The notes under the pieces were generated by a model. The model saw only the letters and a program-made list of their open reading frames with translations. It was not told the origin of the DNA and did not search any database. DNA of 64,000 nucleotides from an uncultured Clostridium sp. GTDB lineage: Bacteria > Bacillota > Clostridia > TANB77 > CAG-508. Positions 13,171-49,935 of the stretch are shown piece by piece; within the stretch, counting starts at the first letter, position 1; the number at the start of each line of letters is the position of its first letter. The stretch is taken from contig URZW01000002.1 in assembly GCA_900552555.1 (NCBI GenBank), positions 82,002 through 146,001 of the forward strand, read 5' to 3'. A program made the translations under genes and the position numbers.

Positions 13171-15675
13171 TTGAAAAGACCAATTTTAGTTGCAATTATA
13201 GGATATATAATAGGTATAATAGTGGGACTATACTTGAATATAAGTATAGTTCCATTTTGTATTTTGATAATTGCAATACATCTAATTTATAAGAAAAAAT
13301 TAAATAAAAAAAGAAAACATCAAAAATTAAAATTATTTTCAATAAAAAGATATTTTAGGTATATCAAGATATTTATTAATTCAAAAGTCATATTATTAAT
13401 AATTATAACATCAATAATTTCAAATACTTTAGTCTTAATTCAAAATCATAAATATGAAAAAATCTATGATGAATTATCAAAAAGAGAAAATTTAACATTA
13501 ACTGGAATAATTATAAGCAATAAAGAAGAGAAACAGTATTACAATAAGTACAAAATTGAAACTAAATTAAAAAATAAAAATTATAGATTTTATATAATGA
13601 CAGATAAAAAATTAAAACTAGAATATGGAGATAAAATACAATTAAATGGAGAGTATAAAAAACCAGAAAAACAAAGGAATTATAAGGGTTTTGATTATTC
13701 AAAGTATTTAAAACAATTAAAAATTTATGGAACCATAAAATGTTCAAAAATTGAACTTATAAAACACAATCAAACAAATAAAATATTTCAAATATCTAAT
13801 CAAATATCAACAAAATTAATAAAAAATACAAAAAACATTTTTGATGAACAAACATCATCAATTTTATTAGGATTAATACTAGGATATAAAACGGACATAG
13901 ATGAAAATACACAGGAAAATTTTAGAAACGCCAGTATGGCACATATTTTAGCTGTTTCTGGAATGCACATTGCTTATGTCATTCTAGGAATAAAAATATT
14001 ATTCAGTAGACTACTTGGAAAAAAGAATACATATATTTTCAGTATTTTTATATTAATATTTTATATGTTTATAACAAATTTTTCTCCATCTATTACAAGA
14101 GCAGGAATTATGGGAATTTTAATGTTAGTGTCAAAAATAATATATACCAAAAATAATACATACACATCAATGGCAATATCATTATTTTTTATTTTGATAT
14201 ATAATCCATTTTTAATTTTAAATGCGGGACTGCAATTGTCATATGGTGGTGTTATAGGAATAGTTACTTTTAATAAAAATATAACTCAAATTTTATAAAA
14301 CATCAAAATAAAAAATAAAATTTATAAATATAAAATAAAACCAAGAATACAAAAAATTTTAGATAAAATAAAAGAAATTATATCAATTTCTATTTCAGTT
14401 CAATTATTTATACTTCCCATAATAATAGAAAATATGAATACCTTTAATCCATATTTTTTAATATCAAATTTAATTTTAAGTATTGCAATAGGACCAATTG
14501 TAATTATAGGTTTTCTATTTATGATTATTGTATTAATTAATTTCAAAACAGTAGATTTATTTTCAGGAATTATAAAATTAGGAATAAAAATACTAATTTT
14601 TATTTCTAATATAGGAAAACTTCAATTTTCAAAAATTTATATACCAACACCGAGTTTATTTTCAATTATTTTGTATTATTTAATAATAGGTACAATACTG
14701 TATATATATAAAGTTTATTTAGCTAAAAAACCAAATACAACGCAAATAAGGGTAAGAAATTTAATAGCTATTATAAAAATGCTAATAAGAAAAAATAAAC
14801 AAAAAATAAACAAAATATTTATGACAATAATTTTAGTAATTATTGTCATAAATATAATACCAAAAAATTTAAAGATTTACTTTATAGATGTGGGACAAGG
14901 TGATTCAACATTAATAGTAACACCAAAAAATAAAACAATTTTGATAGATGGGGGAGGGAGTAAAGATTATGATGTTGGAAAAAATACATTATTACCATAT
15001 TTATTAGACAGAGGTTATAATTCAATAGATTATGTGATTGCTAGTCATTTTGATAATGACCATATTGGGCGGTTTATTATATGTATTGCAAGAAATAAAA
15101 GTAAAAAATATAATAATAGGAAAGCAATATAAATCAAGTGAAAATTATAAAAAATTTCTGAAAATAGTAAAAGAAAAAAATATAAAAGTTAAAATAGTTG
15201 AAGCAGGACAAAGAATAAATATAGAAAACAACCTGTATTTTGATGTTTTGTGGCCAAGTCGGAAGTAATATGATTTCTGAAAATGCTATTAATAATAATT
15301 CTTTAGTGTGCAAACTTATATTTAAAAAATTTTCTATGTTATTTACTGGTGATATTGAAGAAGTAGCAGAAAAAGCAATTTTGGATAAATATGGAAATGC
15401 AGGTAACCAGCTTTTTAATGCTACTGTTTTAAAAGTTGCACATCATCGGTTCTAAAACTTCGTCGACAAAAGAGTTTTTAAATGCAGTAAAACCGAAATA
15501 TGCTGTAATTGGGGTAGGTGAAAACAATAAATTTGGACATCCATCAGATAGTACAATTCAGAATTTAATTGATATTAAAGTTAAAATTTATAGAACAGAT
15601 GAAATGGGAGAAATTATTTTAAAGACAAATGGGAAGGAAAAAATAAAAGTAGGTATTAATAATAATACAAAATAG
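13171..15675 (+). pseudogene. comEC: DNA internalisation competence protein ComEC/Rec2, broken by one in-frame ochre stop (14296-14298) and three frameshifts (~15085, ~15255, ~15445)
   Basis: Five consecutive ORFs in frames 1,1,2,0,1 carry the ComEC competence domain (AHILAVSGMHIAYV) and the metallo-beta-lactamase domain (FIDVGQGDS, ASHFDNDHIGG, LWPS, LFTGDIE, LKVAHHGS). Confidence 0.8.
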
Positions 15676-25197: not shown

Positions 25198-25377
25198 TCC
25201 ATTATTATCATTATCTAATTAGGACATCTTTTTTATATTTAAAAAATCTCTTGATTTGAAATAAGAAATTATAGTATAATAAAAAGAAAGAAAATAATGT
25301 AAAAATAAAAAGTACTCATAAAAGAATAATAAGGCATCAAACCAAGTTTGCACATTAGGAAAGGAATGAAATTATAT

Positions 25378-25923
25378 ATGAAAAATAAAGGAATAACAAT
25401 GATTTCTTTAGTATTAACAGTAATAATACTATTAATACTAGCCGGAATATCAATAGGAGCAGGAAGTAATATAATAACAAAATCAAAACTAGAAAACATA
25501 AAAACAGATATGATGTTAATAAAAGTAAAAGGAAAAGAATATGTTGAAAATGCAAACTATAGTCTAGGAACAGGTTTTGATAAAATAACAGACGAAAATG
25601 AAAAAAATACAAGAATAGAAAATGCAAAATCAAAATTAAAAGGAACAGAAATTGAAGAAAATAATGGATTAGATTCGATAATTGGCATAAATTCAGATGA
25701 ATTTCAAGAAGAAAAACAAAATTTAACTTATTACTATAAACTATCAACAAAAGACCTAGAAGACATAGGAATTTCTAATGTTAAATCAGATGAAAAAAAT
25801 GGAGAATATATAATAAAATATGATATAAAAAATGTTGAAATAGAAATATATAATACACAAGGATTCAAAAATGAAAACAAAAATTACTATTCTTTAAATG
25901 AATTAGAAAATTTAGAAGTGTAG
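25378..25923 (+). CDS. Small pilin-like protein with a non-canonical prepilin-type N-terminus (MKNKG|ITMISLVLTVIILLILAGISI)
   Basis: N-terminal segment homologous to those of the 30676 and 38026 adhesin-like proteins. ATG at 25378, about 12 nt after AGGAAAGGA. Confidence 0.5.
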   Translation: MKNKGITMISLVLTVIILLILAGISIGAGSNIITKSKLENIKTDMMLIKVKGKEYVENANYSLGTGFDKITDENEKNTRIENAKSKLKGTEIEENNGLDSIIGINSDEFQEEKQNLTYYYKLSTKDLEDIGISNVKSDEKNGEYIIKYDIKNVEIEIYNTQGFKNENKNYYSLNELENLEV

Positions 25924-30269: not shown

Positions 30270-30310
30270 AAAGACTAGAACATATAATTATAAAAAGTTC
30301 TAGTCTTTTA
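30270..30310. terminator. Bidirectional terminator (AAAGACTAGAAC...GTTCTAGTCTTT)
   Basis: 12-bp perfect stem between convergent truA and the XRE gene. Confidence 0.7.
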
Positions 30311-30544
30311 ATCGTCATCCAACTCATCAAACAAAGGACTATCATAAAAATCTTTTAGTTTTATATCAAGGCCTCGGCATATTCTAAGTATAGTCAATGT
30401 TTTGGGATTTATAAATTTTTTATTAACAATTCCTTCAAGTGTTGATTGTGTAATTCCACATATTGTTGAAAGCTTATTTATTGTGATATCTCGTTCATTA
30501 CAAAGTTCTACTATTCGATAACTAACAGCTGAAATTAAAGTCAT
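30308..30544 (-). CDS. XRE-family HTH regulator, divergent from adhesin-like gene A
   Basis: HTH_3 motif INKLSTICGITQSTLEGIVNKK. RBS AAGGTGG. Confidence 0.7.
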   Translation of the reverse strand: MTLISAVSYRIVELCNERDITINKLSTICGITQSTLEGIVNKKFINPKTLTILRICRGLDIKLKDFYDSPLFDELDDD

Positions 30545-30675
30545 TTTTCCACCTTCTTATGAAAAAAGTATATCAAAAAAATAAATATAAGATTAACTGT
30601 CTACAGGTGACAATAAAAAAAGTTATATAGTAAAATATTTGATAATATTAGAATAAAAACGAAGGAGAAGGTTTG

Positions 30676-32318
30676 ATGAAAAAGAAAAATATGCTGAAAA
30701 AAAGAATGGGATTACACTAGTAACTTTAGTAATAACAATTATTATTTTATTGTTACTTGCTGGAATTACAATTGCAACACTAGGAGGAGAAAATGGGTTA
30801 TTTGTTAAAGTAAAACAATCGAAAGAAAAATATTCAATATCAGAAGCAAAAGAAAAATTAGAATTAGCAATATCAACTTTACAAATTGAACAAGAGGGAA
30901 AAGGCGAAAATTTAAAAAAGGAAGATTTGCCAAAAATAAATGATGATGAAATAGATGTTAGGGATACATCCAATTTTCCAATTAAAGTAATATGTAACAA
31001 TTATGAATTTAACATAGACTCTAATTTTGTTGTTTCATATGTTGGAATAGCAAACGAAACAATTATTACATATACAACAGAACCAGAAGGTTATACCAAT
31101 AAAAATGAAATAAAGATATTAGTAAAAATAAAAAATTCCAAGGGAATAAAAACCATAGAATATCCTAATGATAACGATAAATTACTGGCAAATGGTCAAA
31201 CAGAAATAGGATTGGATTATAAGGTTACAGCAAATGGAACATATACTTTTAAAATAGTAGATAATGATAATAAAGAGACTAAAAAAGATATAGTTATTGA
31301 TAAAATTGATACAGTTGAACCAAAAGAATTTACACCAAGTATAGAAAATACAACAATGGAAGGATTTACAATAGTTGCAAATGCAGAAGACGGAGATGCA
31401 ACAAGAGAAAGTAGCAAAAGTGGAATAGAAAAATATGAATTTTATATTAACAATGTAAAATATGAAAGTGACACAAATAAATATATGGCAACTGGACTAA
31501 ATAAAAATACTAATTATAATGTATATGTAATTGCATATGATAAAGCTGGTAACAGTAAAAAATCAGAAGTAATTACTGCAAAAACATCATCTACATTACC
31601 TCCACCTGTGGCTAATATTACATTTAATGAAAATAATGCAACCAAAAAAGCTGCCGATTATCCATTATTAACAATGAGTGGAATGAAAAATTGTATTTTG
31701 GAACCTAATAAAGGAGAAGAAGTGACATTAGAAATTACAAGTAAAAAAAGTGATAATATAATTTATTATTATAGCGAAGATGGAGGAAATACCTGGAATG
31801 AATATACTCAGCCAGTAAAAATTAGTTATAATGGAGATAATTTAATAAAAGTAAAAAGTATGTACATTAATAATAATATAGAGTCAGAAGCTCAAGAGGT
31901 AAAAAAATATATATCATATGAAATTAATACAGAATGTACAGCATCAAATTCGTTAAAAAAAATCGCATATGATAAAAATATAAATTCCTATATGTCGATA
32001 TTATCATATGACGATATATATTTTAGAGTCAGTACAGAATGTTGGGGAAAGTATATAAATATTGACTGTAGCACACCGACACACGGATTTTATGGTTGGA
32101 TTTCATTGGGAAACAAAAATGGATTCTGGGATAATCCATTGGCTGGATACCTTGTAACTTTTACAGGGATAAGTGCACAAACACATTGTATTAGAAGTTT
32201 AAAGATACCAGAAAATTCTTTTTGGGGAGTATGTGAGGCAGGAACGTCTGGACAAGAGTTCAGGACATATGAAGTTTGGTGTGGAGAAGAAAATTTAACA
32301 GGGCAAATAAATAAATAA
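30676..32318 (+). CDS. Pilin-like large surface adhesin-like protein, paralog A (FN3-like domain, Cys-containing C-terminal domain). Currently out of frame at an A7 tract (30697-30703)
   Basis: ATG at 30676 with RBS AAGGAG. Adding one A gives MKKKNMLKKKNGITLVTLVITIIILLLLAGITI..., matching paralog B. About 270 aa at roughly 90% identity to B. FN3-like YNVYVIAYDKAGNSKKS. Confidence 0.6.
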
Positions 32319-33273: not shown

Positions 33274-33693
33274 ATGTTTATTCAAAAAATGGTCAAAAAA
33301 AAAAGAAAGGATACAAATGAAATTATAGAAATATTAAACAAAGTAATTAAAAGTACTAAAGATGAAAATAAAGAAATGCTTAAAAGAATTATATTTATAG
33401 CTTTAGAAGAAAAGCTAGGATATAAGGAAACAATGGAAGTAATTGATAAAATAGATGGAGGTGAGGAAGAAATGTTAGCAATAGTAGATACAATACGCAG
33501 AGAAAATCAAATGTATATAAATATGGGAAGAAAAGAAGCAAAGAAAGAAGCAAAAAAAGAAATTAAAAACAAGCTATATAAAATAGCACAAAAGTTATTG
33601 GAAAGAAATACATCAAAAGAGGATGTAGCAGAAATAACAGGACTAAAAGAAAAAGAAATAGAAAAAGTATTAAAAATGGAGAAAATATTATAA
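33274..33693 (+). CDS. Rpn/YhgA-like (Transposase_31) C-terminal fragment
   Basis: KEDVAEITGLKEKEIEKVLK plus a Lys/Glu-rich helix matches the conserved C-terminal tail of Rpn-family proteins. The nuclease domain is absent. Confidence 0.4.
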   Translation: MFIQKMVKKKRKDTNEIIEILNKVIKSTKDENKEMLKRIIFIALEEKLGYKETMEVIDKIDGGEEEMLAIVDTIRRENQMYINMGRKEAKKEAKKEIKNKLYKIAQKLLERNTSKEDVAEITGLKEKEIEKVLKMEKIL

Positions 33694-33809
33694 AAAAACA
33701 CGAACAATGTAATTAGCCAAAAAGCCAAAGAACTACAAATAAAATTGCTTGATAATTTTACATTTTTATGTTAAACTAATAAATGCAAAACATTTTAGGA
33801 GGAATAAAA

Positions 33810-34706
33810 ATGTTAGAAATTATAGAAGATACACTAATAGATGCCATAAAACTATTACCATTTCTATTTATAACATATCTAATTATGGAATATATAGAAC
33901 ACAAAATGGGACATAAAACAAAAAAGGCAATAAAAAAATCAGGAAAATGGGGACCAATAATAGGAAGCATACTTGGAGCATTTCCACAATGTGGATTTTC
34001 AGTATCAGCAACAAATCTATATGCAGGACGAGTTATAACACTAGGGACACTAATAGCTGTATATCTATCTACATCAGATGAAATGCTACCAATATTTATA
34101 TCAGAAGCGGTTTCTCCAATAATAATATTAAAAATATTAGGAATAAAACTTATTATAGGAATGATAGCAGGAACAATAATAGACTTATTAGTACATATAA
34201 TAAAAAACAAAATAATAAAAAATAAAAAAATTGAAATAACAGTTGAAGAAGAAAATGATGAAGACGAAATAGGACATATGTGCGAAGAAGACCACTGTCA
34301 CTGTAATGAAAGTGGAATACTTAAATCAGCAATACATCATACATTAAGCATATTGTTATTTATAATAATAATAACATTTATTATAAATACAGTGGTACAC
34401 TTTGTAGGGGAAGAAACCATTGCAAGTTGGATATTAAATAAACCAGTAATTGGACCAATAATTGCATCACTAATAGGATTAATTCCAAACTGTGCGGCAT
34501 CAGTAATAATAACAAATATGTATTTAGAAAATGTTATTTCACTGGGAAGTATGATTTCAGGTTTATTAACAGGTGCAGGAGTTGGACTTGCAGTCTTATT
34601 AAAAACAAATAATAAAATTAAAGAAAATATAGGAATAATCACTTTATTATATGCAATAGGAGTTATATCAGGTATAATAATCGATTTAATAGGAATTGCA
34701 TTATAA
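33810..34706 (+). CDS. Two-repeat integral membrane permease (DUF318/ArsP-like) with a His/Cys-rich central loop (GHMCEEDHCHCNESG)
   Basis: Internal duplication with P-x-C motifs (FPQCGFSV, IPNCAASV) and an acidic/His/Cys loop. ATG at 33810 after AGGAGGAAT. Confidence 0.45.
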   Translation: MLEIIEDTLIDAIKLLPFLFITYLIMEYIEHKMGHKTKKAIKKSGKWGPIIGSILGAFPQCGFSVSATNLYAGRVITLGTLIAVYLSTSDEMLPIFISEAVSPIIILKILGIKLIIGMIAGTIIDLLVHIIKNKIIKNKKIEITVEEENDEDEIGHMCEEDHCHCNESGILKSAIHHTLSILLFIIIITFIINTVVHFVGEETIASWILNKPVIGPIIASLIGLIPNCAASVIITNMYLENVISLGSMISGLLTGAGVGLAVLLKTNNKIKENIGIITLLYAIGVISGIIIDLIGIAL

Positions 34707-34757: not shown

Positions 34758-37064
34758 TTATTTATTCTTTTTATTTTTTAAATTAACTATAATAGCATCC
34801 TCATTATCAAATAAATAATTAGAATCTGTTGTATCAGTTTGAACAGGATTTATTTCATTTCTTTCATCAATAAAATCCAACTTTTTAGGATTGAATTTTT
34901 TTCTATTCAAACCATTTTCATTATCTTCAGTTTCAGTAGTAACACCATCGGAATATTTACCAAAATCATATATTTTTGTTTTTCTTGGTTCTTTATATTT
35001 AGATGCTAAATAATTAAATTTACCTGGACCAGCCATTGGTTTACCATTAGAACCTCTAATTTTATAAGCACAATCCTTTTGACCAAGAGTTTGTAATTTA
35101 CCAGGTTTAAAATATGGAGTAAATTTCCATTCAACACTACCATGTTTTGAATCATATTTCATCTTATCAAAATCAATAGAATTACCCATAGACCATTCTC
35201 TCTTTTGTCCAAATTCGCTACTCCACCATTCAAGTTCGCTAATTACTCCGCCACCTGTAAAGATTTTACTAGCGCAGTTTGATAATATAGTTTGTTTAGC
35301 GCCAGCTACATTTAATTGCTCAAGGTTTTGAGCAGATATAACAGTACCAACTTTATATTTCCTATACATTGTAAATATAGGTTCTGTTGCTTTACAAATA
35401 AAGTCAGGAAATTCATCAATGTATAAGAAGTTTGGAACTCTAGATTTTTCGCTTCCAGGTCTTCTTAAAACAGCATTTTGCATTGAAATTAAGAAGAATA
35501 GTCCAAATGCTTTATGGTTAGTAGCACCTAAATCACCACGTCTAGTACATATAAAAGTAATATCTCCATTTGCTAAAGACTCGTCAAAATTAATATTGTT
35601 ATGTCTATTACATAAGATATTTTTTACACCAGGAACACGTAGTAATCTATCAAGAATGTCTGCAACAACAGAAATGAATGTTTCTGTATTATGTTTGTTA
35701 GGAGCGTCTTTGTAAAAGTTATTTTTAAAATAAACAAGTTGAGTGTTGTATTTTTCTTTTAGCTCTTCGTCATGTTCTAGAATTTTACACATTTTTTCTA
35801 TTAAATCGAAGTTTGTAAACATTTTTAGCATATCTTCTAAATTAGGTAACATACCTTCGTTCATTTTAGGGTACATTTCTTTCAATAATATAGAAATGTT
35901 TTCGATGGCTTGAATTACTTGCAATTCCTTGAAAAGTTCATATTTTGAAATATCAACCATAGCTTTCATTACTGAAGAAATAGTAATTGCTATTTTATTT
36001 GTATCATCATAAACAAATGGATTTAAGCCAATTGAATTTTTATCAGAAGGATCAATGACATTATAAGTTAAACCAAAATTTTTACATACATCCATCATAT
36101 GGTCTGAAATTTCTCTATCAGGAGACATAACAGTTACACCACAATTTTTATAAGTGATTTCAGAAGTAGAATCTAAAATCATTTTTTTCATATATCCTTT
36201 ATAAACATCTTCATTTCCAGAAGTTGGTGTCAACATATTTAAATTAAAATTAGAATTTAAATACTCATTATCATATGGTTTTGTTAATGTAGCAATTCCT
36301 GTTTTTAAAGCAGTAAATCCCATTTCTTTTGCAACTTCTCTAAAGAAAAATTTTTTTTCTAAATCTCTAGCTATTAAAGGTTCATAAACTAAAGATGTTT
36401 TTCCAGAACCAGATGCACCACATACAAACATTGATTGATATCTTGAAGCTTCTGGAATTGTTATTTGTTGAGAAGTTTCACTATTTTGACATAGGTATAT
36501 ATCACATGTATATGGTCCATGACCTTGTTTTTTATCAGATAAATCAATTCCTGCATAATCCCAAATAGATTGTTTCATATCTTTACTATCATTTACACCA
36601 AAATACAAGAAATTAAATATCTTTGGAATAACAAGTACCGGTACTAAAATAGTTAAAGATGTTAAAGCTGGACGAACTAGATCAGAAAAATCTGTAACTA
36701 AATCAACATATCCAGGATTAAATACAAGTAGTAACCATGCCCCCATATTAAGCCATTGAGTAAACATAGAAATTGCAATTATACTCAAACCAATTACATA
36801 TATATAAAATAAAGTAACTTTTTTACTTTTGGTTGATGCAAATTCAGATGGAATTGAAAAAGCAAATGCTAACATAGGACATGCAAGTGCTATTGTATAT
36901 TGAAGTGGTCCCCAATATGAATAAGAAACACCTGTAAATAACATTAATAACATTTCAGTGATTCTGTCAACTGCTATGTATACAGTTATAAGTGTTAATA
37001 TATATGTGGCAAAAGTGTTTCTACTAACTCCTAGTTTTTTTAAAAAATTGTCTATTATTTTCAT
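34758..37064 (-). CDS. Membrane-embedded FtsK/HerA-superfamily P-loop ATPase resembling type IV secretion VirD4/TraG coupling proteins (or VirB4). About 5 N-terminal TM helices
   Basis: Walker A VCGASGSGKTS, Walker B FLYIDEFPDF, then the pattern R..KVGTVISAQNLEQL...ILSNCASKIF. Strong RBS AAAAGGGG. Confidence 0.5.
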   Translation of the reverse strand: MKIIDNFLKKLGVSRNTFATYILTLITVYIAVDRITEMLLMLFTGVSYSYWGPLQYTIALACPMLAFAFSIPSEFASTKSKKVTLFYIYVIGLSIIAISMFTQWLNMGAWLLLVFNPGYVDLVTDFSDLVRPALTSLTILVPVLVIPKIFNFLYFGVNDSKDMKQSIWDYAGIDLSDKKQGHGPYTCDIYLCQNSETSQQITIPEASRYQSMFVCGASGSGKTSLVYEPLIARDLEKKFFFREVAKEMGFTALKTGIATLTKPYDNEYLNSNFNLNMLTPTSGNEDVYKGYMKKMILDSTSEITYKNCGVTVMSPDREISDHMMDVCKNFGLTYNVIDPSDKNSIGLNPFVYDDTNKIAITISSVMKAMVDISKYELFKELQVIQAIENISILLKEMYPKMNEGMLPNLEDMLKMFTNFDLIEKMCKILEHDEELKEKYNTQLVYFKNNFYKDAPNKHNTETFISVVADILDRLLRVPGVKNILCNRHNNINFDESLANGDITFICTRRGDLGATNHKAFGLFFLISMQNAVLRRPGSEKSRVPNFLYIDEFPDFICKATEPIFTMYRKYKVGTVISAQNLEQLNVAGAKQTILSNCASKIFTGGGVISELEWWSSEFGQKREWSMGNSIDFDKMKYDSKHGSVEWKFTPYFKPGKLQTLGQKDCAYKIRGSNGKPMAGPGKFNYLASKYKEPRKTKIYDFGKYSDGVTTETEDNENGLNRKKFNPKKLDFIDERNEINPVQTDTTDSNYLFDNEDAIIVNLKNKKNK

Positions 37065-37258
37065 TATTTATTTGCCCCTTTTTATTAATTATATTTTATT
37101 TGAAATTTTATAATACTACATATCTATTATCCTATAAAATGAGGAAAAAAACAAGTATTTTTGGAAAAAAAGTACATAAATAGTTACTATAAAAGAATAA
37201 AAATCTAATAAACAACATATAATATTTAAAATTACATAAGAATAGGAGAGATGTGTTT

Positions 37259-37537
37259 ATGGAAGAATTCAAAAAAGAACAATTAATAAAAGAAAAAAGT
37301 GAACTAGATAAAGAATTAGAATTAATTAGAAATATAATAAAAACAAGAGAAGAATTAAAAAATGACAATAAAAATTTTGAATTTGCAGAAATGGAATTAG
37401 TAGATTATTATATATATCATATAAAAGCAAATCAAGCAAAATTAGATTATTTAATAAAATTAGCAAAAGTAAATGGAATTACAATAGATAGAATAAACAA
37501 AATAAAATATGAAAATTATGATGAAGAAATAGGGTAA
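37259..37537 (+). CDS. Hypothetical small coiled-coil protein
   Basis: RBS GGAGAG. No recognisable family. Confidence 0.35.
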   Translation: MEEFKKEQLIKEKSELDKELELIRNIIKTREELKNDNKNFEFAEMELVDYYIYHIKANQAKLDYLIKLAKVNGITIDRINKIKYENYDEEIG

Positions 37538-37652
37538 GAGGTAACAATATTTATTCCAGATAATAACAATAAAGATAATTATAAAAATAAAATATAAATG
37601 AATATTTGTCCATATTTATTCATACAAATGTATAAATAAAGTTTGAAGAGGG

Positions 37653-37916
37653 ATGAGTATGGATACAAATATAATTACATATTTAGCATGCATATGTTTT
37701 TTATTTATTTTTGGTAGAATTTTTATTGTGCCAATAACAAAGATTTTAAAACTTGTTATTAATTCTATTTTAGGTGGAGTAGCTATATTTTTAATAAATC
37801 TTGTTGGGGGATTGTGGGGATTCCATATAGGACTTAATATTTTTACAAGTATTTTAGTTGGCTTATTAGGATTGCCTGGAGCTGTGTGCTTGGTTATTCT
37901 AAAATTATTAATATAA
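37653..37916 (+). CDS. bofA: BofA-family small membrane protein (pro-sigma-K processing inhibitor-like)
   Basis: NSILGGVAIFLINLVG...LNIFTSILVGLLGLPGAVCLVILKLL matches the BofA pattern, including the conserved GLPG motif. Confidence 0.55.
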   Translation: MSMDTNIITYLACICFLFIFGRIFIVPITKILKLVINSILGGVAIFLINLVGGLWGFHIGLNIFTSILVGLLGLPGAVCLVILKLLI

Positions 37917-38025: not shown

Positions 38026-39387
38026 TTAAAATTCTTGACAAGACAAATCTTCATCTGTACATTTAACTTCATATACATAAAAAGGAACAGATAAAGATGT
38101 CCCATCTAATAATGAAATCATTTTTGTATTCTGTGGTATTTTTACACTTTTTGCTGTTTTAGTACCGAATGTTTTATTTTCTGATAGCCTGTATAAGTAA
38201 TCAAATTTTATTAAATTATTTATATTTATTGATGAAAACATAGCCATACATCCATAACTAGAACAATCTGCAGTCCATGTATATAAGGTTATATATTTTC
38301 CCCAACACGCAGGATCTATCATTAATTTATTTAAATAGGAATTATCAGTATCACAATCAGCATAAGTTGTATAATTATTATCATATGCTTTTTCTGCTAA
38401 TGCATCTTCAGTCAATCCATCATCAGGTATCATAACTCCATTTAATGTTAAAGTTGGATAACCACCTTCTGTAGTTGTTACAGTTATTGTTGATGACTGT
38501 TTAGAATTTCCAGCTCTATCATATGCTTTAACATATACAGAGTAACTTGTCTTTTTAGTTAATCCTGTTACCTTAAAAATTTTTTGGCTTGACTCATATT
38601 TAGTATTGTTTACAAAAATTTCATACTTTTCAATTCCACTTTTTATACTAGTATCTGTTTCATCACCATCTTCAACATTTGCAACTACTGTAAATGCCGT
38701 TGATTTTATATTTTCTATACTAGGTGTGAAATCTTTAGGCGCAACGGTATCAATTTTTTCAATAACTATATCCTTTGTAGTTTCAATATTATCATTATCT
38801 ACTATCTTAAAAGTATATGTTCCATTTGCTGTGACTTTATAATCAAATCCAACTTCTGTTTGACCATTTGCCAATAATTTATCATTATCATTTGGGTATT
38901 CAATAGTTTTTATTCCTTTAGAATTTTTAATTTTTATTAATATTTTAACCTCGTTTTTATTAGTATAACCTTCTGGATCTGTGGTATATGTAACAATAGT
39001 TTCATTAGCTATTCCAACATATGAAATAACAAAATTAGAATCTATATTAAATTCATAATTATTGCATATTACCTTAACTGGAAAATTTGAAGTATCCCTA
39101 ACATCTATTTCATCATTATTTATTTTAGGTAAATCTTCTTTTTTCAAGTTCTCACCATTTCCTTCTTGTTCAATTTGCAAAGTTGATATAGCTAATTCCA
39201 ATTTTTCTTTAGCTTCTGATATTGAATATTTTTCTTTTGATTTTTTCACTCTAGCAAATAATCCATTTTCTCCCATTAATGTTGAAATTGTTATCCCAGA
39301 AAGAATTAACAAGATAATAATTGTAACAACCAACGAGACCAAAGTAATACCTTTCAAAGACTTTAAATTCGTTTTTAAATTTTTCAT
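38026..39387 (-). CDS. Pilin-like large surface adhesin-like protein, paralog B (intact). Non-canonical prepilin-like N-terminus, FN3-like domain, Cys-containing C-terminal domain
   Basis: MKNLKTNLKSLKG|ITLVSLVVTIIILLILSGITI. FN3-like YSVYVKAYDRAGNSKQS. RBS GGAGGA. Confidence 0.6.
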   Translation of the reverse strand: MKNLKTNLKSLKGITLVSLVVTIIILLILSGITISTLMGENGLFARVKKSKEKYSISEAKEKLELAISTLQIEQEGNGENLKKEDLPKINNDEIDVRDTSNFPVKVICNNYEFNIDSNFVISYVGIANETIVTYTTDPEGYTNKNEVKILIKIKNSKGIKTIEYPNDNDKLLANGQTEVGFDYKVTANGTYTFKIVDNDNIETTKDIVIEKIDTVAPKDFTPSIENIKSTAFTVVANVEDGDETDTSIKSGIEKYEIFVNNTKYESSQKIFKVTGLTKKTSYSVYVKAYDRAGNSKQSSTITVTTTEGGYPTLTLNGVMIPDDGLTEDALAEKAYDNNYTTYADCDTDNSYLNKLMIDPACWGKYITLYTWTADCSSYGCMAMFSSININNLIKFDYLYRLSENKTFGTKTAKSVKIPQNTKMISLLDGTSLSVPFYVYEVKCTDEDLSCQEF

Positions 39388-39568: not shown

Positions 39569-39808
39569 TTGAAAAAGTATGAAAATAAAAATAATGTTAT
39601 AGGAAATCTAATAAAAGAATATAGAGAAAATTCGAAATTATCTAAAACGGAAGTTAGTAGACAACTACAATTACATGCTGTTTATATTGATCGCACGGAA
39701 TTAAATAGAATGGAAGAAGGGAGAATGATTGTAAAAGATTTTGAACTTATTGCTTTATGCAAAGTACTAAAAATTCCATTTGAAAAATTATCATACCTCA
39801 TAGAATAA
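39569..39808 (+). CDS. XRE-family HTH regulator, divergent from adhesin-like gene B (TTG start)
   Basis: HTH_3-like LSKTEVSRQLQLHAVYIDRTE. RBS AGGAGA, then 6 nt to TTG. Confidence 0.6.
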   Translation: MKKYENKNNVIGNLIKEYRENSKLSKTEVSRQLQLHAVYIDRTELNRMEEGRMIVKDFELIALCKVLKIPFEKLSYLIE

Positions 39809-49196: not shown

Positions 49197-49244
49197 AATT
49201 TAATTATTTTTCAAATTAATTCGTACTTGAAAAAGGAGAAATAT

Positions 49245-49935
49245 ATGCAAAATTTAAAAGTGATTTATGAAGATAATCATATTATAGTAGTAGAAAAAAC
49301 ACCCAATATTCCATCACAATCAGACAAAACTGGTGATATTGATATGCTTACACTTGTAAAAAAATATTTAAAAGAAAAGTATAATAAACCTGGAAATGTA
49401 TATTTAGGACTTGTACATAGACTGGATAGACCTGTTGGTGGAATTATGATTTTTGCTAAAACATCTAAAGCCGCAGGAAGATTAAGTAATCAAGTAAGAG
49501 AAAAAATATTTAAAAAGGAATATTTGGCTGTTGTTGATGGGAAAGTCAATCAAAAGAAGCGGAAGTTTAGAAAACTACTTATATAAAGATGAAAGAAATA
49601 ATATGAGCAAAGTTGTTAGCAAAGATAAGAAAAATGCAAAACTTGCAAAATTAGATTATGAAGTAATAACATATAATGAAGTAAAAAATTTAAGTTTATT
49701 AAAAATCAATTTGCACACAGGAAGGCACCATCAAATAAGAGTTCAACTGTCAAATTTTGGACATAGCATATTTGGAGACCAAAAATATGGTACAAGGGGA
49801 CAAGGCAAACAAATTGCTTTGTGGGCATATAAATTGACAATTGAACATCCAATAAGTAAAGAAAAAATGACATTTACAGATTTACCGGAAACAGTTGGAA
49901 CTTGGTGCATTTTAAGAGATATAAATAATTTATAA
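49245..49935 (+). pseudogene. RluA-family pseudouridine synthase interrupted by a single-base frameshift near 49545-49556
   Basis: ORF 49227-49586 carries HRLDRPVGGIMIFAK. ORF 49531-49935 carries LHTGRHHQIRVQL. Removing one base in CAAAAGAAGCGG joins them as ...VDGKVNQKSGSLENYLYKD.... Confidence 0.7.

Follow-up and report, generated by a model that had tools for sequence, protein, structure and literature searches.

A solitary coupling-protein-like ATPase kept as a chromosomal core gene in uncultured gut Clostridia

Coupling proteins are usually seen as components of mobile machines for conjugation or effector secretion; the one described here behaves as a housekeeping gene. It is encoded in a 64,000-nucleotide stretch of DNA from an uncultured Clostridium sp. 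(GenBank assembly GCA_900552555.1, contig URZW01000002.1, positions 82,002 to 146,001 of the forward strand), which as a whole is referred to as the window. Fold prediction and motifs give good support for identifying the product as a VirD4/TrwB-type type IV coupling protein (T4CP) with intact catalytic residues. It is likewise well supported that the T4CP-like gene is an intact, vertically inherited, stand-alone chromosomal core gene under strong purifying selection in a low-GC lineage of gut Clostridia. The stand-alone gene is common to hundreds of uncultured but abundant gut Clostridia species, and the host appears to keep its own use for it.

Identity, conservation and putative promoter of the gene

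The gene (Table 1) is a single uninterrupted open reading frame (ORF) starting at an ATG on the minus strand, and the plus-strand frame of the same interval has stops throughout. The motifs listed in an initial annotation of the window are all present: the Walker A and Walker B sequences, KVGTVISAQNLEQL at residues 571-584, and ILSNCASKIF at residues 593-602. In a 40-sequence family alignment (A1), which includes the window protein and served as input for AlphaFold, residues G216, G219, K222 and T223 are invariant or nearly so and D550 is nearly invariant. No block of the protein is better conserved than Walker B, at an identity of 0.90 over 81 orthologues. The Pfam profile TraG-D_C (PF12696) matches the protein at 33.2 bits against a cut-off of 22; at E<=1e-3 it is found in 31 of the 40 aligned sequences, with T4SS-DNA_transf in 20 and TrwB_AAD_bind in 17. 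The AlphaFold model has a mean predicted local distance difference test (pLDDT) of 82.8 and a predicted template-modelling score (pTM) of 0.73, with disorder restricted to residues 708-768. With this predicted model as query, the top Foldseek matches in the PDB are the coupling proteins Cagbeta (8dol, E 7.6e-11) and TrwB (1e9s, E 9.6e-11), at a probability of 1.0 and target template-modelling scores of 0.57-0.68, and sequence identity to solved T4CPs is just 12-14%. Searched by sequence against the PDB, the protein on its own returned nothing relevant, and the A1 family profile matched DotL/IcmO of 6sz9 in the TraG-D_C region and no other PDB entry. The matches in NCBIfam and PHROGs are each weak and single, to Bacteroides MobC (a T4CP) and to the P-loop of a terminase, respectively. 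Given a TraG-D_C score above the cut-off, Cagbeta and TrwB as best folds and intact Walker motifs, we place the predicted protein with the VirD4/TrwB-type T4CPs.

Other classes of motor were considered and rejected. The initial annotation had left the choice between a VirD4/TraG-like and a VirB4-like ATPase; the former is borne out by the TraG-D_C profile and the Cagbeta/TrwB folds, and a VirB4/CagE/TrbE ATPase is not, as neither CagE_TrbE_VirB nor AAA_10 matches in Pfam (E<=0.1) and the VirB4 fold (4ag5) appears only at rank 49 (E 3.5e-5). For the FtsK/SpoIIIE translocase class, the motor-domain profile FtsK_SpoIIIE has no match to the window protein at the same threshold and one weak match (E 2.3e-4) among the 40 aligned sequences. 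FtsK is not in the top 50 Foldseek matches in the PDB, and the model has no gamma (winged-helix) domain, its C-terminus being disordered and holding no folded domain. The lower Foldseek ranks include DndH-C, HerA and DotL. At the level of the superfamily, profiles, fold and scans agree with the initial description of a solitary, membrane-anchored FtsK/HerA-type ATPase.

The membrane anchor differs from that first description, which counted about five transmembrane helices. Hydropathy and the AlphaFold model agree on long N-terminal hydrophobic helices at residues 15-44, 53-70, 79-114 and 127-158 plus one short helix, and four transmembrane helices are more likely than five; this would place the ATPase domain in the cytoplasm. 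An amphipathic helix at residues 2-11 precedes the long helices, the first of which holds the conserved charged residues D32, R33 and E36, and the N-terminal membrane domain as a whole is one of the best conserved regions. An all-alpha insertion in the model sits where the all-alpha (substrate-binding) domain of T4CPs lies and is its putative equivalent. From residue 708 on, pLDDT falls below 50, and within this tail lies a conserved acidic motif (column identity 0.82 over 81 orthologues). The motif, DPIxTDxSDSxYLFDNEDAIxxxLKK, is also present in sister lineages of 43-55% identity, with or without the neighbouring MOBC gene described below. T4CP tails bind relaxosome or adaptor proteins, and by analogy the C-terminal motif is a putative docking site for a partner.

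Conservation of the gene was analyzed in a one-genome-per-species collection, which yielded 188 matching stretches. The best 80 of the 188 (L001-L080) were examined; all are full length, have 64-91% amino acid (aa) identity to the window protein, and come from uncultured gut Clostridia such as Clostridium sp. CAG:389, CAG:575, 28_17 and 26_22. Every one of these 80 orthologues is intact (741-806 aa), and with 80 metagenome loci included the ORF is intact in 160/160. The gene order is fixed as glmS> bofA< yaaL< T4CP> ArsP2< DUF2651< truA< cdaA< pdp< rnhB<, with ArsP2 present in 73, yaaL in 75, bofA in 74 and glmS in 64 of the 80 related loci. In the sister lineages described below, yaaL and bofA do not adjoin the T4CP gene. 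Divergence of the T4CP resembles that of its housekeeping neighbours, and pairwise ratios of nonsynonymous to synonymous substitution rates (dN/dS) against ten orthologues are 0.08-0.15. In one related species (L061:10001-12325) the T4CP-like gene alone is inverted with respect to its conserved neighbours, and about 1.8 kb of extra sequence separates it from yaaL.

These observations bear on the proposal, made in the initial annotation, that the gene is a remnant of a degraded conjugative element. A leftover of an integrative conjugative element, drifting towards loss, would fit with an ancestry from mobile T4CPs, which is real, and with an Rpn-like fragment 1 kb from the gene. It is nevertheless most improbable given the 160 intact reading frames, the low dN/dS, the conserved promoter and the housekeeping flanks in fixed order, and neither an integrase nor an att-like structure was found flanking the T4CP-like gene. 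A degraded integrative conjugative or mobilisable element is rejected on these grounds, and what holds of the proposal is a remote ancestry in mobile elements. The Rpn-like ORF itself (33274-33693, 139 aa, about 1 kb from the T4CP-like gene) matches the C-terminal part only of an Rpn-family nuclease/transposase (TIGR01784, E 1e-3). This match is weak, and the fragment does not stand as a sign of a decaying element, being found in only 4 of the 80 related loci.

Upstream of the gene lies a 30-nt element, unusually well conserved for non-coding DNA, which aligns in almost all of the 80 species loci. It comprises a -35 hexamer TTGTTT (37154-37149), a 17-nt spacer with a T-run and a -10 hexamer GATAAT (37131-37126), followed by ATATATGTAT. 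The element occurs in a single copy in the 64-kb window, against 0.03 copies expected by chance. A pattern search tolerating at most four substitutions matched it in 162/169 loci, including chromosomal relatives at 32-36% aa identity; the mobile relatives in L082, L087 and L089 lack it in their upstream regions. From its sequence the element would be a sigma-A-type promoter, and it could hold an operator for some regulator. Its conservation argues for steady, host-controlled expression and for one capture event behind the chromosomal clade. A sporulation-specific promoter was rejected upon by-eye comparison with the consensus sequences of sigma-E, F, G, K and H: the sole fit is the sigma-A-type TTGTTT-17-GATAAT, and a sigma-H-like AGGA in the element has no conserved GAAT at the right spacing. 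A hairpin or repeat like an origin of transfer (oriT) was also rejected; across 134 distinct sequences, pairing of the A-run and T-run aside, the variable flanks are complementary no more than shuffled controls. By eye, a 14-bp inverted repeat is seen at one locus, L081.

Ancestry, the relaxase-type partner and proposed function

The protein has far more homologues than expected by chance: 3428 at E<=1e-3 among scored candidates, and, in an exhaustive search of cluster representatives, 2940 at E<=1e-3, 622 at E<=1e-10 and 105 at E<=1e-30. The orthologue P0065, 92% identical, lies on a 1.74-Mb contig. Chromosomal relatives that share 32-50% identity stand alone amid housekeeping genes, in settings that include pth/RNase G/ileS, pth/L21/L27/obg, pyrG/rluB/leuS, fmt/HU, SMC/MinDE and a MurJ-like flippase. 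A constant partner near these distant chromosomal relatives was rejected since, the MOBC gene aside, the neighbours vary (pth, fmt/HU, pyrG, MurJ-like). Relatives at 22-29% identity adjoin genes of plasmid-like elements (RPA, DnaA_N-type replication, ParM-like, DUF3854 and UvrD-like genes, and integrases). In PLSDB the closest plasmid genes, at about 28% identity, are on large plasmids of C. beijerinckii and C. botulinum, and on the C. botulinum plasmid a DUF87 (VirB4-like) gene lies some 8 kb downstream of the T4CP. The four-helix anchor is probably ancestral because hydropathy of the mobile relatives P0142 and P0144 places the same four segments at matching positions. Judged by these sequence relationships, the window protein has its origin in a clade of T4CPs carried by plasmids.

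Two sister lineages carry a convergent gene immediately downstream of the T4CP-like gene (Table 1). Its product of about 310 aa matches Replic_Relax at 30.7 and 27.1 bits against a cut-off of 25.3. In CONJscan this family (PF13814) stands for the MOBC relaxase superfamily, whose members are partnered with VirD4-type coupling proteins in integrative mobilisable elements (IMEs; PMC5357655). A metagenome scan seeded with the chromosomal clade gave 80 further loci (L093-L172), whose T4CPs are 43-55% identical to the window protein, and the MOBC gene is adjacent in 61 of them. At the other 19, the sequence available downstream of the T4CP is less than 1.5 kb in seven, 2.1 kb in L153 and at least 4.7 kb in eleven. 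At one sister locus, within a 900-kb contig, no integrase is present, and the genes around the pair are those for a MurJ-like flippase and an S1-domain protein, two of rluB type, and tagA. An S1-domain gene follows the MOBC gene in 32 of the 80 metagenome loci, and rluB-type genes lie further downstream of it in the three contexts examined (L083, L090 and L117).

The same pairing occurs on mobile elements. Four metagenomic mobile relatives were examined, and a Replic_Relax gene follows the T4CP in two (L087 and L088), where a hidden Markov model (HMM) built from the sister Replic_Relax proteins matches the gene directly downstream at E ~3e-26. The conserved, catalytic-type motifs E-V-R-R, C-E-D-x-x-H and F-T-T-D are common to the Replic_Relax proteins of sister lineages and plasmid-like elements; chromosomal T4CP/MOBC pairs are convergent and mobile pairs co-directional. 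In a neighbor-joining tree, which carries no support values, the window lineage is nested inside the clade with adjacent MOBC genes. A MOBC homologue in the window lineage itself was sought with tblastn and with the purpose-built HMM, and none was found in the window or within 10 kb of the T4CP in L001-L080. Taken as a question of descent, the gene appears to stem from a plasmid or IME mobilisation module, consisting of a coupling protein and a MOBC relaxase, that was captured by the host and fixed in the chromosome.

The protein is probably a domesticated coupling ATPase that still acts as a motor for DNA or nucleoprotein. Our preferred reading, which we hold tentatively and place somewhat short of evenly balanced, is a host-owned coupling motor for DNA transfer that hands over its substrate to a channel whose genes lie elsewhere or that resident elements provide. 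In such a mechanism the T4CP-like protein would form a membrane-bound hexamer, its all-alpha domain would bind DNA or a nucleoprotein substrate, and its C-terminal motif would bind a partner. Hydrolysis of ATP would then drive the substrate to or through an envelope channel, which may be encoded elsewhere in the genome or provided by resident conjugative elements.

Several observations weigh against this reading. In the window protein, TrwB_AAD_bind (PF10412) is sub-threshold, at 15.7 against 20.5 bits, and T4SS-DNA_transf has no match in Pfam. No channel gene of a type IV secretion system (T4SS) and no relaxase was found in the 64-kb window or within 10 kb at the 80 related species loci, which makes the channel and the substrate conjectural. 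Selection on a coupling function is hard to see across hundreds of species if that function relies on sporadic conjugative elements. In the tree, MOBC adjacency is missing in six separate clades with the T4CP intact, so that the function may no longer involve a relaxase.

The retention of the T4CP where the adjacent MOBC gene is missing would suit a pump that works alone. An autonomous DNA pump without T4SS docking, working as a membrane-anchored hexameric translocase comparable to FtsK, SpoIIIE or Streptomyces TraB and engaged in chromosome segregation, septum clearance or sporulation-associated DNA handling, would also agree with a solitary core gene that has a constitutive-type promoter and housekeeping-like purifying selection. 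FtsK and SpoIIIE have four transmembrane helices per subunit, as does the predicted window protein, and not the two usual for VirD4. Nucleoid and division genes are found near some chromosomal relatives, with HU near P0122, P0131, P0132 and P0135, and SMC and MinDE near P0135. We nonetheless regard such a pump as rather unlikely, since the searches above gave no FtsK_SpoIIIE match to the window protein and no FtsK among the top 50 folds, and the protein lacks a gamma/KOPS-type domain. Furthermore, the plasmid-borne P0142 and P0144 share the four segments, so the anchor is not a new adaptation, and neighbours such as HU and fmt may merely reflect the shared synteny of related lineages. The presence of the sporulation genes bofA and yqfD implies that a normal SpoIIIE is probably present as well.

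The Replic_Relax partner raises a further alternative, as this family has a PD-(D/E)XK fold (PMC3424549). By analogy with defence pairs of a HerA- or FtsK-type ATPase and a nuclease, the T4CP-like ATPase, with or without the PD-(D/E)XK Replic_Relax nuclease of the sister lineages, might sense and destroy incoming conjugative or phage DNA. DndH, TdpAB and HerA-Sir2 are among the lower-ranked folds, and the only match in PADLOC is a weak one to mad8 (E 2e-4, 18.8 bits). A defence component is improbable, however: the gene occupies a single syntenic locus with low dN/dS rather than a variable island, its best fold and profile matches are T4CPs, and the window lineage does not have this nuclease within 10 kb. 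The partner family, moreover, is that of MOBC relaxases, and the same pair is found on plasmid-like elements beside replication genes.

Returning to the coupling motor, a broader proposal may be drawn from the ancestry of the gene. A large radiation of low-GC, uncultured gut Clostridia may have turned a plasmid mobilisation module, in which a VirD4-type coupling ATPase is accompanied in the sister chromosomal lineages by a MOBC-type PD-(D/E)XK protein, into a core system that is controlled by the host through a conserved promoter of its own and has a function not yet ascribed to T4CPs; we consider this possible, if on the doubtful side. Candidate functions of the domesticated module are host-owned transfer or export of chromosomal DNA, or autonomous membrane translocation of DNA during the cell cycle or sporulation. 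In the window lineage this would have gone one stage further, to an ATPase that functions with no nuclease linked to it.

Genomic setting of the window

The window is plainly chromosomal. Its G+C content is 22-31%, and it carries the housekeeping genes mfd, a ClpB/ClpC-type ATPase, htrA, the N-terminal part of comEC, rnhB, pdp, truA, glmS, uvrC, yqfD and RNase R. The T4CP-like gene is monocistronic: it converges on the ArsP2 gene and diverges from yaaL. Nearly all ORFs within 15 kb were scanned with Pfam or NCBIfam and none matched a relaxase, VirB4, VirB6, VirB8 or integrase, in agreement with the initial annotation, and the scans also took in most of the larger ORFs of the whole 64-kb window with the same negative result for conjugation genes. 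The neighbours that had been described as pilin-like proteins, a BofA-like protein and a permease are confirmed as genes with a pilin leader and Fn3 domains, a BofA protein (PF07441, 69.5 bits) and an ArsP_2-type permease (NF037962).

Table 1. Coordinates of the T4CP-like gene, its parts and surrounding features (window positions unless a locus is named)
Feature	Position	Strand	Details
T4CP-like gene	34758..37064	-	768 aa; stop codon 34758-34760 within span; TraG-D_C, AlphaFold, Foldseek, conservation
N-terminal membrane domain	36585..37064	-	residues 1-160; hydropathy and AlphaFold model helices
Walker A (P-loop) VCGASGSGKTS	36393..36425	-	residues 214-224
All-alpha insertion	35568..36002	-	residues about 355-499; model secondary structure
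Walker B FLYIDEFPDF	35400..35429	-	residues 546-555
TraG-D_C match	35166..35426	-	residues 547-633; sensor strand VGTVISAQN included
Conserved acidic motif VQTDTTDSNYLFDNEDAIIV	34785..34844	-	residues 741-760, within disordered tail 708-768
Putative gene-specific promoter element CTTGTTTTTTTCCTCATTTTATAGGATAAT	37126..37155	-	aligned upstream of T4CP-like genes; ~60 nt before ATG
yaaL (DUF2508) and bofA	37253..37916	+	context; divergent from T4CP-like gene; Pfam, NCBIfam
ArsP_2 / arsenic-efflux-type permease	33783..34706	+	context; convergent with T4CP-like gene; NF037962, 324 bits
Pilin-leader and Fn3 genes	30750-32318; 38026-39387	+; -	72% aa identity over 314 residues
XRE genes beside Fn3 genes	30308-30544; 39569-39808	-; +	
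Replic_Relax gene, sister lineages	L083:10941-11864; L090:12494-13435	-	convergent with T4CP-like gene; Pfam

The two pilin-leader and Fn3 genes bracket the T4CP locus in the window genome, and their position underlies the earlier suggestion that the ATPase was co-opted for the export or assembly of the flanking surface proteins. This is very improbable in view of their distribution: in the 80 related loci the Fn3 genes occur in only 1-2 and their XRE regulators in 1-4, against 80 for the ATPase, and co-occurrence with pilin-like genes across related genomes accordingly fails. The Fn3 gene pair is a diverged inverted duplication specific to the window genome, whose arms (30704-31465 and 38594-39355; 762 nt, 83% complementary) are separated by 7.1 kb. 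Pilin-type substrates are normally handled by GspE/PilB-type ATPases, and a pilus ATPase of this type was rejected here, as no T2SSE-type (GspE/PilB) profile in Pfam matches the window protein and pilin-like neighbours are so rare among related loci. The Fn3/XRE repeat arms enclose the DUF2651-ArsP2-T4CP-yaaL-bofA segment, and the inverted repeat could permit its inversion. At 30654-30760, a pilin-like leader (KKNGITLVTLVITIIILLLLAG) belonging to the gene at 30750-32318 precedes the first in-frame ATG, GTG or TTG, and the gene has either an unusual start codon or a damaged 5' end.

Three further observations concern other parts of the window. Overlapping ORFs at 49227-49586 and 49531-49935 both match the single rluB-type pseudouridine synthase gene of L083, which suggests a frameshift, as a sequencing error or a pseudogene. 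A 191-aa ORF at 25348-25923, syntenic in 45 of the 80 loci, has a weak prepilin-type N-terminal methylation motif (PF07963, E 0.048) and may encode a conserved pseudopilin-like protein that has no relation to the variable Fn3 genes. The comEC-type gene at 13171-14298 (DUF4131 and Competence) stops after 375 aa, and a separate ORF of 232 aa comes next at 14434-15132; this may be a split competence channel gene.

Comparison with known systems

With the T4CPs VirD4, TrwB, Cagbeta and DotL the window protein shares the P-loop fold (8dol, 1e9s), Walker A and B, the sensor strand and an N-terminal anchor, together with the predicted all-alpha insertion and an acidic, disordered C-terminal tail. It differs in having a predicted four transmembrane helices where these proteins usually have two, and its gene is a single-copy chromosomal core gene with its own conserved promoter and no T4SS or relaxase nearby. 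The CloDF13 MobB/MobC pair is a mobilisation module made of a coupling protein and a MOBC relaxase. Modules of coupling protein and MOBC relaxase, as in streptococcal IME class 8 (PMC5357655), resemble the T4CP-Replic_Relax adjacency of the sister lineages and of two mobile relatives. In contrast to such modules, the sister pair lies in housekeeping synteny and has no integrase or replication genes, and the window lineage has no MOBC gene within 10 kb.

The closest cultured relatives are the T4CPs of clostridial plasmids (C. botulinum pFWSKR40E1-type and C. beijerinckii p1), with 27.6-28.4% identity over 86-90% of the length. These are annotated as "TraM recognition domain-containing" or "T4SS DNA-binding domain-containing" proteins. 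They differ from the window protein in being plasmid-borne and 920-1000 aa long, and integrases are nearby on both the C. botulinum and the C. beijerinckii plasmids. Literature searches turned up no account of a T4CP that is solitary and vertically inherited in Clostridia, and the nearest parallel is in Patescibacteria (PMC12102498). There, chromosomal VirD4-like T4CP genes are mostly unlinked to virB4, recognised chromosomal T4SSs are present, MOBC is the commonest relaxase class, and some relaxase genes adjoin t4cp (PMC12102498). Patescibacteria are small-genome bacteria of another phylum.

FtsK, SpoIIIE and Streptomyces TraB belong to the same ATPase superfamily and have a multi-helix N-terminal membrane domain, and they work without a dedicated secretion apparatus, offering a model for a window protein that acts alone. 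The window protein is set apart from them by its profile, its missing gamma domain and its fold ranking. The gene has the look of a clear instance in which a host captured components of conjugation. Should the protein still move DNA, a host-encoded route of DNA exchange is possible, which would matter for gene flow in the gut microbiome; should it have taken on a new cellular role, it widens the known roles of FtsK/HerA-type T4CP motors. In either case the family is a defined, testable target that comprises a single gene with its promoter, a tail motif and, optionally, a nuclease as partner.

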